Of a DNA stretch of 64,000 nucleotides, positions 1-6,000 are shown one piece after another. How positions within the stretch are numbered: the first letter of the stretch is position 1; every line of letters begins with the position of its first letter. The position numbers were made by a program. Source of the DNA: Candidatus Eiseniibacteriota bacterium (GTDB lineage: Bacteria; Eisenbacteria; RBG-16-71-46); contig JANMQY010000023.1 in assembly GCA_031370785.1 (NCBI GenBank), forward strand, positions 1 through 64,000. Reading direction: 5' to 3'.

Positions 1-3000
1 ATCTCGTTCTCGCCACGGGTTCGCTTCCGGCTCCGTCCGCACTTCACGCTCGGTGCGGGCCCCGAAATGCGGTGGCTCCTGCGCGCGAGCTCGAGGATCT
101 CGACCGAGTTCCGGCCGGTCGCCGGCTCGCCGTCGCGCCACGCGCGACCGGCCGCGCAGATCTTCGAGGACCTCAGCGAGCCGTTCGACGTCACCGGCGC
201 GTACGAGCGGCTCAGTATGGCCGTCTCGGGCGGCGCGGGATTCATCTGGCCGCTGCATGCGCACGAGGTTCGTATGGACGCGGAGTGGCTCGAAGGAGTG
301 ACGGACGTGGTCAAGTCCTCGAGCAACTCGCGCCGCCCGCGGGCGGCGCGGCTGTCGTTCGGGCTGGCGTGGTGAGATCGGGCGGCGCCGCGCTTGCGCG
401 CTCGCGGGCCCTTGCCTAGAGTCGCGCGATCTTGTGACACATGCTGCGCACCACTCGAGGACGATGCGATGCTGAAGGAACTGGCCACGGGGCTCGGCGT
501 CACGCTCGAGAACCTGTTCAAGAAGCCGTTCACCGTGCACTACCCGGACGAGAAGCTCGAGATGTTCCCTCGCTTCCGCGGCCTGCACATCCTCGCCCGA
601 CACGAGGACGGCCTCGAGCGCTGCGTGGGTTGCGAGCTGTGCGCGGTGGCGTGCCCGGCGGACGCGATCTTCGTGAAGGCCGCCGAGAACGACCCGGCGC
701 ACCCGGTGTCGCACGGCGAGCGCTACGCCGAGCGCTACGAGATCAACATGCTGCGCTGCATCTTCTGCGGCATGTGCGAAGAGGCCTGCCCGGAAGACGC
801 GATCTACCTCGAGAAGGACTACGAGCTGTCCGACTATGATCGCGATGCCTTCATCTACACCAAGGACGAGCTGCTGGTGGGGCCCGAGAAGTCCGGTTAC
901 TTGCCGGCGCGCTGAGGCGGAACGCTTCCGGCGTGGGGCATCGGGCGGGCCCATCGGCCCGCCTTTCTCATGAAGTGACGGCTCGCGTCGCGGCCACTCC
1001 GAGCTGCGCCAGCAGCTTCTCCGCCAGCCGATCCCAGCTCCAGCGCGCGGCCTCGGGCGGGCCGGCTGCGGCGAGGCGGCCGCGCAGCACACTGTCGCTG
1101 AGCGCGCGGCCGATCGCGGCCCGCAGAAACCAGGGATGGCGGACCGCGACCAGCGCGTTGTCGCCGTTGCGCGCGAAGTCCGCGGTGCCGCTCGACGTGC
1201 ACACCACGGCGCAGCCGCACGCCATCGCCTCGAGCGCGGTGTTGCACCAGCCCGCCTTGCGCTCCGCCGCGACGAACACGTCCGCCGACTGGTAGAGCGC
1301 GACCAGCTCGTCCTGGGTGGGGTTGAGCACGAAGCGCGCGTTCGCGGGCAGCGGCGCACCGTCCCTCGGATCCTGCCGGTTGTGCTGGTCCACGTGATCG
1401 AACAGCACCAGCTCGAACTCGGGCACCCGCCTCAGGCCCCGCGTCGCCTCGAGCACGAGGTTGGTGCCCTTCTTGGCGCGCGAGCGGCGGCCGTTGGCCA
1501 GCACGCGCAGCGGGGCCGCGCGGTGCCGGGCAGGATCGGGAATGAACTGGTCCGGGTTGATTCCTCCGGCGCCATCCAGAACCGCAAGCCGGGTGCGTCG
1601 CGCCAGCGACCGGCGCAGCGCACTCGAGTTGGCCGCCAGCCGGGCGGAGACATCGCGCGCGCGCGCGACCCCGGGGTCGTTCTCGATCACGCAGTAGTAG
1701 AGGTGGATTCCGGCGCGGTGCGCGGCGAAGGCCTCGAGCGTGTGCGGATCGGCGCTGATCGCGAGATCGGCGCGCCCGCTCGCCGATTCGGCCAGCGGGC
1801 GCGTCTGTCCGCGATAGGGCAGCCATGATGGGGGCTCGCCGCCCGGATGGTAGAGGGTCACCTCGTGACCCATCCGCGACCAGGAGTTCCCCAGCTCGAT
1901 GAAGCGGCGGACGCCTCCGAACACTCCGACGTGAGGCAGAAAAGTGCTGATACGCATTGCCGGGCACGCTAGCAGAGGGGGCTCGGCGCGCGCGAATCGT
2001 CGGCATGTGCAACGCAGGACAGCGGACGACGTTCTCCATTGAAACAGGCGAATGATTCGATTCGACACAGGGACTCGTATGCGATCTCGCATCCCAGATG
2101 AGGTGGCTCACCCAAATGGTTGAGCCGCATCCATATGGCTCCGAGCGGCGGGATTGGTACGCGACCTGCTATTGCGCGAGCGTCGGCATGATTCAACTGC
2201 GGTGCGCGCCGCGCGCCGCGCAACCCAACCGAGCGCCTCGGTCAGGCGCAGTTCAGGGAGGTAGTCGAGATGAGACTCATGCGTTGGACCCCAGTCAGTC
2301 CCACCCGGGAAATGTTCAACCTGCAGGATGAAGTCCACCGGCTGTTCGGTGATCTGGCAACCCATTCCCCGCTCCGCGGTGATGTGGCTCCTCTGTTTGC
2401 GCCTCCCGTGGATATCCACGAGACTGCCGAGGCGTTTGTGATCCGGATGGACCTGCCTGGAGTCTCGCCAAAAGATGTGAAGGTCAGCCTGCTTGGCGAT
2501 ACCCTCACCATCCGTGGTGAGCGGACGCAGCAGTTCGACGAGTCGAATGGGAACGCTCAGCGTCTGGAGCGCGTTTACGGCGCCTTTGAACGTTCGTTCA
2601 GCCTCGACTCCGCGGTGCGCGGCGACAACGTCAAGGCGAATTACCGCGACGGAGTGCTCGAGGTCCAGGTCGCGAAGGCCGAACAGGCCCGCGTCCACGA
2701 CATCGAAGTTCAGGCCGGCTAGAGTTCGGAATCGATTTCATTTTTGGACGGCCCACGATCCCTGAGTCCTCGGGGACGTGGGCGTTGTCCTTGAACACAA
2801 AAGGAAGGATCAAATGGGCAAAGTCATCGGCATCGATCTCGGAACCACCAATTCGTGCGTGGCGGTCATGGAGGGCGGCGAGCCGAAGGTGATCCCCAAC
2901 GCGGAAGGTTTCCGAACCACTCCATCGGTGGTGGCGTTCTCCAAGAATGGAGAGCGACTGGTCGGACTGGTCGCCCGCCGTCAGGCCGTGACCAACCCCA

Positions 3001-6000
3001 CAAACACGGTTTACTCGATCAAGCGTTTCATGGGCCGCAAGTACGACGAGGTGCAGAGCGAGCTGAAGCTCGTGCCCTACACGGTCGTGCGCGGCGAGAA
3101 CGGCGATTGCCGGATCAAGATCGGCTCCGAGGAGTTCTCGCCACCCGAGATCTCGGCGATGATCCTGCAGAAGATGAAGCAGACCGCCGAGGACTATCTC
3201 GGTGAGAAGGTCACCGAGGCCGTGATCACGGTGCCGGCGTATTTCAACGACAGTCAGCGCCAGGCCACCAAGGATGCCGGCCGCATCGCCGGTCTCGACG
3301 TGAAGCGTATCATCAACGAGCCGACCGCGGCCGCTCTGGCCTACGGCCTCGACAAGAAGAAGGACGAGAAGATCGCGGTCTTCGACCTCGGCGGCGGAAC
3401 GTTCGACATCTCCGTGCTCGAGATCGGCGACGGCGTGTTCGAGGTGCGCTCGACCAATGGCGACACCCACCTCGGCGGCGACGACTTCGACCAGCGGGTG
3501 ATCGACTGGCTCGCCGAGGAATTCAAGAAGCAGGAAGGCATCGATCTGCGCAAGGACGCCATGGCGCTTCAGCGGCTCAAGGAAGCCGCCGAGAAGGCCA
3601 AGATGGAGCTGTCCGGCACGCTCGAGACCGACGTCAACCTGCCGTTCATCACCGCCGATCAGAACGGCCCCAAGCACCTCAACATCAAACTCACCCGCGC
3701 CAAGCTCGAGCAGCTCGTCGCGGATCTGATCGAGCGCTGCCGCGGCCCGGTGTTGCAGGCGCTCAAGGACGCCGGCCTTTCCGCTTCGCAGATCGACGAA
3801 GTCGTGCTGGTGGGTGGCGCGACGCGCATGCCCAAGGTGCAGGAGCTGGTGCGGCAGATCTTCGGGAAGGAGCCGCACAAGGGCGTCAATCCCGATGAAG
3901 TGGTTGCGATCGGCGCCGCCATCCAGGGCGCGGTACTGACCGGCGATGTGCGCGACGTCGTGCTGCTCGACGTGACCCCGCTCTCGCTCGGGATCGAGAC
4001 CAAGGGTGGGGTGATGACCACGATGATTCCGCGCAACACCACGATCCCGACCCGCAAGATGGAGGTGTTCTCGACCGCGGCGGACAACCAGACCACGGTC
4101 GAGGTGCACGTGCTGCAGGGCGAGCGGCCGATGGCCAGCGGCAACAAGACCATCGGCAAGTTCCATCTGGACGGCATTCCGCCGGCACCGATGGGAGTCC
4201 CGCAGGTCGAGGTCGCGTTCGACATCGACGCCAACGGCATCCTGCACGTCTCTGCCAAGGACCGCGCGACCGCGAAGGAGCAGAGCATTCGCATCGAGGC
4301 ATCGAGCGGGCTCAGCGAGCGCGACATCCAGCAGATGGTGACCGACGCCGAGGTGCACGCGGCCGAGGATCGCAAGCGCAAGGAGGCGGTCGAGGTCCGC
4401 AACAACGCGGACAGCCTGGTCTACGAGGTCGAGAAGAATCTCAAGGAGCATGCGGACAAGATCGACGGGGCGCTCAAGACTCGCATCGAAGCTGCGCTCG
4501 GCACGCTGCGCGACGCGCTCAAGGGCGAGGATGTCGATGCGATCCGCACCGCGACCGAGGCTCTCAGCACGGTGTGGCACGAGGCCGCGGCGGCGATGTA
4601 TCAGGCCACCGGGGCACAGGGAGGGCAGGGTGCCGGGGATGCGAGCCAGCCGGGGCAGGAATCAGGGGCCGGACGCGGGAAGGGCAAGGGCGGCGACGGC
4701 GCCGTGGACGCGGATTTCGAAGTGGTCAACTAGGCAGGCGTCCAGGGTCGGGCCGGCTTTTCGAGCCGGCGCGTGCCCCGCGCTGGAGAATCGGGAATCG
4801 GCGGCGTCGGACTCTCGGTCCGCGCCGCCTTTTTCGTTGCGCTGGGTGAGGGCGCGAAACTAGATTGGCCTCGCCTTGTTCCCGACCATGAATGCGCTCC
4901 CGAGCCCGACCTTTCCAGCGCCTCTGTTGTGGGCGCAGGGCGCGGCGATGCTCGCGTACGGCCTTGCCCAGGCCCTGATCGTTCTCTACTCCTCGCACCG
5001 CTGGCTGATCCTGTGGCGCCTCCGGCGGGGCGTCAAAGCCCTCACGCAGCATCGGCCGATCGATCCGGCGCAGCTTCCGTCGGTCACGGTGCAGCTGCCG
5101 GTCTTCAATGAGCGGAGCGTGGTCGGGCGGCTGATCGACGCGGTGGCGGCCCTCGATTATCCGGCCGATCGCCTCGAGATCCAGGTGCTCGACGATTCGA
5201 CCGACGAGACTCGCGCGATCGCCGCGGCCGCCGCCCGGCGCCACCGCGCGCGTGGCGTAAACGTCGTGCATCGGCATCGCGCCCGGCGCGACGGCTTCAA
5301 GGCCGGCGCGCTCTCCGAGGGGCTGGCCCACGCGCGCGGCGAGCTGATCGCGGTGTTCGATGCCGACTTCGTCCCGCACCCGGACTTCCTGCGCCGCACG
5401 GTGCCGCACTTCGACGATCCGGCGGTGGGCATGTGTCAGGCCCGGTGGGGGCATCTCAACCGCGACGAATCGCTGCTGACCCGCGCGCAGGCGGTCATGC
5501 TCGATGCGCACTTCCTGCTCGAGCACGAGGCGCGCATGCGCGGCGGGCTGTTCTTCAACTTCAACGGAACCGCGGGGGTGTGGCGTCGCGCGTGCATCGA
5601 AGCGGCGGGGGGCTGGCAGCACGACACGCTGACCGAAGATCTGGATCTCAGCTACCGCGCGCAGCTCGCGGGCTGGCGATTCGTGTTCGATCGGGAGGTG
5701 GTCGCGCCCGCGGAGCTGCCCGCGGACATCGAGGCGCTCAAGTCGCAGCAACGGCGCTGGGCCAAAGGCTCGATCCAGACCGCACGCAAGCTGCTGCCCG
5801 CGCTGCTGCGGGCGCCATTGCCCGCGCGGGTCAAGCTCGAGGGCTTCCTCCATCTGACCGGCAACGTCGCCTACCCGCTGTTGCTCGCGCTCGGGCTGCT
5901 GTTGCTCCCGTTGCTGCTCGGCACCGCCGCCGTGCGCCCGGAGCTGGTGTGGACGTTGCAGGCCGTCGTCGTTCTGCTCGGCGTCGTGCCGGTCACGGTG

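Follow-up and report, generated by a model that had tools for sequence, protein, structure and literature searches.

In the textbook view, the bacterial heat-shock response is run by sigma-32 or by repressors such as HrcA. Sigma-54 promoters of chaperone genes are known from Flavobacterium psychrophilum, where SM4 promoters with mapped starts precede dnaK, groES, grpE, htpG, clpB and lon (PMC9723704), and a matrix survey predicts their enrichment at dnaK, ibpA, groES/EL, grpE and dnaJ in Planctomycetota and Bacteroidota (PMC12316311). As far as the accessible parts of these two sources go, the activator was left open in both: for Flavobacterium three candidates are given and no activator or enhancer is named, and the survey, whose main text has no match to 'Eisenbacteria', names no cognate enhancer-binding protein (bEBP). 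In Myxococcus xanthus the NtrC-like activator HsfA, phosphorylated by the kinase HsfB, acts directly on the heat-shock gene lonD (PMC9109919, as far as accessible), and in enterobacteria PspF, a bEBP lacking a regulatory domain, serves the sigma-54 stress operon pspA through upstream sites such as TAGTGTAATTCGCTAACT, listed in a table of PMC4987338. The main text of a Desulfovibrio sigma-54 regulome study (PMC4641369) has no matches to dnaK or hsp, and in the literature covered, main texts of mostly open-access papers, no paper was found on the activator, the site or the Eisenbacteria heat-shock control considered here.

The window, the first 64,000 nucleotides of contig C83 from a Candidatus Eiseniibacteriota genome, resembles the F. 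psychrophilum case in having a core chaperone gene behind a -24/-12 element, but in another phylum and, within this genome, for hsp20-dnaK only instead of a whole regulon (PMC9723704, accessible part). The sigma-54 promoter TGGTACGCGACCTGC (2155-2169, forward strand; 19.0 bits) lies 115 nt 5′ of the hsp20 ATG, and sigma-54 geometry places the predicted hsp20 transcription start near 2181 on the same strand. Its conservation, asserted in the first-pass annotation, is borne out by 28 of 30 loci and by held-out loci. The distance given there was 80-125 nt in 18 of 20 loci; GG-N10-GC, with at most two mismatches to TGGCAC-N5-TTGC, occurs 67-166 nt 5′ of hsp20 in those 28 loci, and the remaining two have an element with three mismatches. 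Upstream are two 17 bp enhancer dyads, CGTTCTCCATTGAAACA (2030-2046; 15.9 bits; centre at -117 relative to the promoter start) and, 23 bp from it, TGATTCGATTCGACACA (2053-2069; 10.8 bits; centre at -94), with a third enhancer-like dyad at 1998-2014 that is weak and doubtful (7.4 bits with the matrix built from relatives). The sites of the window are degenerate, as had been cautioned, and the repetition of such sites is general: of 31 upstream regions, 28 have two or three dyads of at least 9 bits and the other three have one. Across these regions the centres group near -94, -105, -116 and -138 from the promoter; the dyads stand 80-165 bp 5′ of it, in helical phase and not overlying it. An IHF-like element between dyads and promoter (2113-2125, forward strand) is weak, with two mismatches to the IHF consensus and a loose A/T bias only across the relatives' loci; the genome has three IHF/HU genes.

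The scoring matrices were trained on relatives only, with the target genome excluded. When the 312-nt intergenic region was shuffled 5000 times with its dinucleotide composition kept, no shuffle reached the promoter score, five reached that of the best dyad, and none reached the combined score of 45.7, the shuffle maximum being 27.4. Counted singly, degenerate dyads are no more frequent in the window than expected (16 against 19.4), and it is therefore the arrangement that is the signal. When 779 promoter-like sites of the genome are ranked, the second hsp20 copy, on contig C8, comes first (46.8), in keeping with the earlier claim that it shares the promoter architecture, its -24/-12 element included; C83 is second and the next site scores 31.1. 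In held-out dnaK loci the promoter was recovered in 38/45, a dyad in 43/45 and both together in 37/45, against 0/28 for the combination at hrcA control loci; the seven loci with a promoter below 9 bits include several with an altered -12 box. A scan of genome contigs with Hsp20 gave three distant loci. The four hsp20 paralog loci without dnaK have no promoter above 11 bits, and the detached hsp20 of G111 retains the promoter and two dyads. One DNA alignment omits the row of G009, which was on the wrong strand. A sigma-54/enhancer architecture for hsp20-dnaK is thus supported by sequence, and transcription would be expected to start from this promoter.

The operon consists of hsp20 (2270-2722, forward strand), for a small heat-shock protein of 150 aa, and dnaK (2814-4733, forward strand; 639 aa), which is above the TIGR02350 cut-off and is the sole full dnaK found in the assembly. 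Of 30 loci, 28 show the adjacency reported earlier and two break off at a contig end. A hairpin lies between the genes (2751-2784, forward strand), and the 108-nt stretch that separates them has a folding z of -2.5. For the predicted 5′ leader the value is -0.5, no better than that of shuffled sequence, and an Rfam search of 1-6500 gave no thermometer or other element beyond one weak match at chance level. A G+C hairpin with a T run after it (4799-4834, forward strand) is a candidate terminator, not called by the terminator scanner. On the other side are nuoI (469-915, forward strand), duplicated on C8, and a divergent GT4-type glycosyltransferase gene (968-1957, reverse strand) that is missing from many relatives that retain the enhancers. 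A tRNA-Gln call at 6234-6321 was dismissed, being inside a coding region.

With HrcA/CIRCE and sigma-32 control the locus shares its output genes, and hrcA is retained, as had been noted, 5′ of grpE-dnaJ; the difference is that neither CIRCE nor RpoH is found for dnaK and that the control proposed is positive and ATP-dependent. RpoN is present (TIGR02395, 442 bits against a cut-off of 277). RpoH was not found among the four of 17 sigma-70 region-2 matches that were scanned (best RpoH score 159 against a cut-off of 323), the three non-ECF sigma-70 proteins all falling under RpoH cut-offs; the other 13 matches were judged ECF-like, all by open-frame length and seven by sequence. CIRCE is absent before the hsp20-dnaK operon and before hrcA in this genome and, as first claimed, from intergenic DNA at up to three mismatches, the sole such match (C60:1267) lying inside a 688-aa kinase-like ORF. 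Its supposed near-absence from relatives does not hold, CIRCE-like arms preceding groES in 13 of 36 loci overall and in 10 of 22 of the same family, and G040 has a canonical HrcA with CIRCE at hrcA and one groES. The view that sigma-54 stands in for sigma-32 and HrcA is accordingly kept for dnaK here, and HrcA/CIRCE persist within the group. To speak of the whole DnaK system, as had been done, is too broad: grpE and dnaJ follow hrcA in a unit of their own, which has a promoter of sigma-70 type, and the architecture of hsp20-dnaK is shared by none of grpE-dnaJ, groESL and clpB. The HrcA of this genome is narrowly over the TIGR00331 cut-off (201 against 197), and its recognition helix reads SAASIRG where that of Thermotoga HrcA reads SSATIRN, the Thr being retained in 0/22 and the Asn in 2/22 f1 proteins.

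The activator, left unidentified by the first-pass annotation, now has a candidate at C84:82130-83230, a bEBP of 367 aa with AAA+ and HTH domains only. Its Walker A/B and GAFTGA motifs are intact and its HTH is C-terminal, with about 25 residues before the ATPase and no N-terminal regulatory domain; a receiver domain is listed for none of its 120 best homologs, a contrast with the phosphorylated HsfA of M. xanthus (PMC9109919, accessible part). Alone among the 16 bEBPs that the genome encodes it has a dyad of at least 12 bits within 1 kb 5′ of the ATPase domain, and this dyad lies over its own sigma-70 promoter. Such a self-operator (at least 10 bits) occurs in 21 of 30 ortholog loci, one of them inside the upstream gene, against 0/28 hrcA upstream regions; it is missing from nine, and part of its conservation is due to the overlap of its left half with the extended -10 box. 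In 13 other families (f5, f6, f8-f18), 57 of 63 genomes have an ortholog directly 5′ of dnaK, with dyads beginning just past the bEBP stop codon. Linkage of the bEBP to dnaK is lacking in this genome and across families f1-f4 and f7 (0/37), so that orthology and the self-operator are what ties activator to operon here. In trees that include the HTH, C84 groups with the dnaK-adjacent proteins on a single branch (99/95) to the exclusion of the genome's 15 further bEBPs, the ATPase-only tree leaving the clade unresolved; C84 and the G040 gene are reciprocal best matches. A profile search of representative genomes gave mostly generic bEBPs. In metagenome loci a 15-bit dyad is found at most 400 nt downstream of 14/32 bEBPs with a TLWR-type helix against 0/43 others, a correlation that is largely that of one clade, 18 of the 32 having no downstream dyad.

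C84 resembles PspF in lacking a regulatory domain, yet it is under the PspF cut-off (TIGR02974, 254.4 against 443.55), the PspF site (PMC4987338, accessible part) differs from the hsp20 dyad, and the targets here are cytoplasmic chaperones, with no PspA found in the genome. NtrC enhancers, TGCACC(A/T)4TGGTGCA in the same source, are similar-sized dyads upstream of a -24/-12 promoter, but their half-site and NtrC's recognition helix are unlike those of the dyad and of C84.

Promoter, dyads, phasing and self-operator, together with the domain content, synteny and orthology of the bEBP, are read directly from the DNA, and make it probable that hsp20-dnaK is a sigma-54 unit served by this one dedicated sensor-less protein. 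By analogy with established sigma-54 biology, its dimers would bind two or three phased YGTTYCA-N3-TGRAACR dyads some 95-140 bp upstream, oligomerise and loop, probably with the assistance of IHF, to sigma-54 RNA polymerase at 2155-2169 and open the promoter with ATP, and the protein would probably repress its own sigma-70 promoter through the dyad over the -10 box. Lacking a sensor domain, it must be restrained in trans or through turnover. HrcA as a required partner was rejected, since it was not found in five genomes (90-98% complete) that all have the bEBP and the promoter. Sigma-32, HspR and HSF1 are chaperone-titrated heat-shock regulators whose activity is restrained by the binding of DnaK. 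Our preferred guess, a tentative one some way short of an even chance, is that DnaK or other chaperones titrate the bEBP and release it as misfolded proteins accumulate, in which case it would work like eukaryotic HSF1; a DnaK-bEBP complex prediction scored 0.06 against a mark of 0.32 and is counted neither for nor against this guess.

A constitutive sensor-less bEBP whose autorepressed amount sets a steady DnaK/Hsp20 level, with no stress switch, would be compatible with the same wiring and differs as to the input only. The missing sensor domain speaks for it, as do the failure to find PspA (PF04012) in this genome (G000; 100% complete, 147 contigs), the need for DnaK even in unstressed cells and a search of 1900-5000 that gave no sigma-70 promoter. 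We nevertheless think it unlikely, as strong induction is the norm for small heat-shock genes, the identified targets are chaperone genes in every case, and a conserved P-R-x-L linker (R276 in 99% and L278 in 98% of the best 120 homologs) together with a basic N-terminal helix suggests a conserved regulatory surface.

Alternatively, promoter and dyads could be real with another bEBP, for instance of an NtrC-type two-component system like that of HsfA in Myxococcus, as activator and C84 moved to other targets. There are 15 further bEBPs to choose from, receiver-bearing bEBPs of other taxa also adjoin the dyad, C84 is unlinked to dnaK throughout f1 (0/22), and the search at the chosen cut-offs gave no ortholog in G015 or G019, both 89-90% complete and both retaining the dyads. 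What makes this quite improbable is that families with and without the linkage share the same dyad, that only C84 among the 15 bEBPs listed has the TLWRK helix, that it is the only bEBP here with a self-operator, and that the genome holds no other paired dyads of comparable quality.

That the dyads are LexA-like or HspR/CtsR-like operators on a sigma-70 promoter, the -24/-12 element being incidental, has in its favor a similarity to LexA boxes of the GTTC/GAAC type and the commonness of single dyad matches at this G+C, but is very improbable with phased sites well clear of the promoter, a -24/-12 element conserved phylum-wide in held-out dnaK loci, no sigma-70 promoter found, as noted above, and paired dyads confined, within the genome, to hsp20. 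That the start of C83 is a co-binned or assembly artefact, its promoter foreign to this dnaK, drew on the second nuoI-hsp20 copy at the end of C8 (nuoI 86% identical in nucleotides) and on a 58% Hsp20 identity that is usual in the family, where the mean is 56%, and is largely refuted and scarcely credible, single contigs of one study covering 467-3334 (run X1) and 467-3184 (X2) at about 91% identity, G001, of the same genus, being collinear with C83:469-4731 at 77%, as it is with C8 and the remainder of C83, and the Hsp20 N-terminus being nearest to that of G001. The contigs of these two RNA runs are long and flat and may be DNA, and so tell nothing about transcription starts or expression; RNA runs X3 and X5 have only the conserved dnaK part, from other organisms.

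In the present case a promoter, its binding sites and a candidate activator can each be named, and all three are conserved across one phylum. Taken as one reading, possible but doubtful as a whole, the C84 protein would be a dedicated bacterial heat-shock factor, held by DnaK and released by misfolded proteins, the ancestral chaperone regulator of Eisenbacteria, with kin beside groESL-dnaK elsewhere (L227), a takeover of groESL where HrcA was lost (f2), and membership of the missing activator class that serves sigma-54 promoters of chaperone genes in several phyla. The four parts are small enough for a rebuild in E. coli, and how a sensor-less sigma-54 activator may read protein damage is thus directly testable, while the rewiring of the regulon against HrcA is visible inside one phylum.

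Upstream of hsp20 (2270-2722) and dnaK (2814-4733; the only full-length dnaK found in the assembly), TGGTACGCGACCTGC (2155-2169) matches the GG-N10-GC pattern of sigma-54 promoters. Scored against the sigma-54 consensus, an element of this kind lies 67-166 nt 5′ of hsp20 with no more than 2 mismatches in 28 of 30 loci (the window and 29 relatives), and with 3 mismatches in the other two. Still further 5′, 17-bp dyads of the form YGTTYCA-N3-TGRAACR occur in two or three copies in 28/31 regions, with centers clustering near -94, -105, -116 and -138 from the promoter; those of the window are at 2030-2046 and 2053-2069, with a weak third at 1998-2014. 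Single dyads in the window are not above chance frequency, and the first-pass annotation was right to call the window's copies degenerate. With promoter and dyad matrices trained on the 29 relatives only, window excluded, the top two sites in the genome were those of the two hsp20 copies, on contigs C8 (46.8) and C83 (45.7), the next scoring 31.1 (779 sites), and none of 5000 shuffles of the hsp20 intergenic region reached the combined score. At 45 dnaK loci outside the training set the promoter was found in 38, a dyad in 43 and both in 37, while none of 28 control hrcA upstream regions passed; 8 more loci with no dnaK match were left out. The counts and the training loci include one unpublished genome, G026 (L020, L061, L121, L149), on which alone no claim hangs. 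Family f13 (L208, L220, L226) has TTGT or TTAT as its -12 box 5′ of dnaK, not TTGC, with the -24 box and dyads retained.

The suspicion that the start of C83 came from a co-binned strain is not borne out, and the locus is native. C83:469-4731 is collinear with a same-genus genome at 77% identity, the same as for the rest of C83 and for C8, and nuoI (469-915) to dnaK, spanning a divergent glycosyltransferase gene (968-1957, minus strand), is bridged by one contig in each of two sequencing runs of a single study at ~91% identity. The 58% Hsp20 identity is typical, the family mean being 56%. The end of C8 (L037:11581-12694) has dcd, tRNA-Gln, nuoI and an hsp20 truncated by the contig end; this copy carries a sigma-54 promoter and three dyads. 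The duplication is limited to nuoI and hsp20, the nearest relative of the C8 Hsp20 is in another genus, and the copy may stem from an old duplication, from acquisition or from a mis-join. The window opens C83, one of 147 contigs in 3.44 Mb, and its positions 1-466 hold the end of an ORF matched nowhere else in the genome and uncovered by the run contigs, which stop at ~464; this stretch may mark where an insertion after tRNA-Gln ends.

A sigma-54 promoter requires an ATP-hydrolysing enhancer-binding protein (bEBP) bound upstream, of which PspF is one described case (PMC4987338). The genome encodes 16 bEBPs, and only that at C84:82130-83230 has a dyad of at least 12 bits within 1 kb 5′ of its ATPase domain; this dyad overlaps a promoter, TTGACC-17-CATTTT, at its -10 box. 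The protein has 367 residues, just ~25 of them N-terminal to the ATPase; its Walker and GAFTGA motifs are intact, an HTH is present, and a fold model is consistent with the AAA+/HTH reading. A site of at least 10 bits is present in 21 of 30 ortholog loci, in one of them within the upstream gene. In a survey of 201 genomes of the phylum, 125 had a bEBP match among the matches listed and 100 had coordinates for both bEBP and dnaK, with 34 further matches beyond these. Among the matches listed, the bEBP is directly 5′ of dnaK in 57/63 genomes of 13 families, and beside it in 0/37 genomes of f1-f4 and f7, f1 being the window's family. In the six exceptions the two genes are on different contigs, hsp20 adjoining dnaK in one (G192). 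Where linked, the dyads set in right after the bEBP stop codon; promoter and dnaK follow, accompanied by hsp20 in some loci only, and often grpE, dnaJ or degP come next. A tree that includes the HTH places the C84 protein and the dnaK-adjacent proteins on a single branch (support 99/95, with bootstrap values not yet fully settled) with the other 15 bEBPs outside; the ATPase-only tree does not resolve it. Common to the clade are a helix of the SR[ST]TLWRK type, a P-R-x-L motif in the linker and an N-terminal helix that is basic. Self-operator and orthology point to the C84 protein as the putative activator in the window's unlinked case. A second seemingly sensor-less bEBP (C73:19224-21023) has a different HTH and no dyad.

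In an outside check on metagenome loci, 14/32 bEBPs with a helix of the TLWR type (most of the 14 from one clade) are closely followed by a strong dyad, against 0/43 of the other bEBPs. On a non-Eisenbacteria-like contig (L227:2571-8538), with an ECF sigma and an anti-sigma-like gene, a sensor-less TLWRK bEBP lies 5′ of a dyad, a sigma-54 promoter, groES-groEL and a divergent-type dnaK. In a bEBP clade whose N-termini are longer and whose helix reads LPRTTLWRK, near-perfect TGTTTCA-N3-TGAAACA dyads and non-chaperone genes lie 3′ (L232, L237, L239, L243, L245, L246, L248, L269, L270, L272, L274, L281, L286). A strong dyad at L313:1501 in genome G041, within an upstream ORF and ~1 kb away from where a thioredoxin-domain gene begins, is probably due to chance.

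In the simplest model, C84 dimers would assemble on the phased dyads, loop to the sigma-54 polymerase and open the hsp20-dnaK promoter, and the self-operator on the C84 -10 box would limit the C84 level; this wiring is likely. Its input is a more tentative matter, and HrcA is dispensable to it. By analogy with sigma-32, HspR and HSF1, which are chaperone-titrated regulators, titration of C84 by chaperones is the possibility that we favor over the others. Another partner, or turnover of C84, ranks below it, as does constitutive activity, which seems unlikely.

RpoN exceeds its profile cut-off in the genome, and no sigma factor scanned reached that for RpoH. As earlier claimed, no CIRCE occurs in its intergenic DNA at up to 3 mismatches. 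hrcA is first in hrcA-grpE-dnaJ, and since its promoter, TTGACA-17-CATAAT, ends 7 nt before the ATG there is no room for CIRCE; in f1 its mRNA appears, from such spacing, leaderless or nearly so (L036:9366-9400, L095-L115; -10 box and ATG 7 nt apart). The HrcA recognition helix has drifted in f1; two f1 proteins keep its Asn (G016, G020), both from genomes with CIRCE-like arms at groES. The near-absence of CIRCE implied for relatives is not confirmed: CIRCE-like outer arms lie 5′ of groES in 13/36 loci (10/22 in f1; 0.04 expected per region), and in G040 HrcA and CIRCE are both canonical. The promoter-dyad pair is absent at groES, clpB, the clpX-lon region and hrcA of the window's genome; in f2 (three genomes, HrcA not found) groES has both. 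Control is therefore split, and it changes from family to family. Some 245 nt 5′ of groES, 29/36 loci (L125-L160) have a second dyad, TGYCA-N3-TGRCA, the window genome's copy (C63:5152-5168, L075) being its top site genome-wide; degenerate CIRCE-like arms are in most cases 35 bp before it in L129, L130, L136, L138-L143 and L145. A bEBP with a receiver and no GAFTGA (C63:6230-7663, minus strand), two genes further 5′ and with its C-terminus seen in 16/36 loci, is a candidate binder.

PspF and the C84 protein are both sensor-less, but the latter fails PspF membership and PspA was not found in its genome. Sigma-54 promoters at chaperone genes have already been mapped or predicted in other phyla. 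In Flavobacterium psychrophilum start sites were mapped at dnaK, groES, grpE, htpG, clpB and lon, the activator being left open (PMC9723704), and a matrix survey predicts such promoters likewise in Planctomycetota and Bacteroidota (PMC12316311). Myxococcus HsfA, a regulator of lonD that is itself phosphorylated by a kinase (PMC9109919), is mentioned too in 10.64898/2026.08.28.747804. Our literature search found no paper on heat-shock control in Eisenbacteria, and none on a C84-type activator or its site. To this the window contributes the unlinked case, and a picture of HrcA and groES control that shifts.
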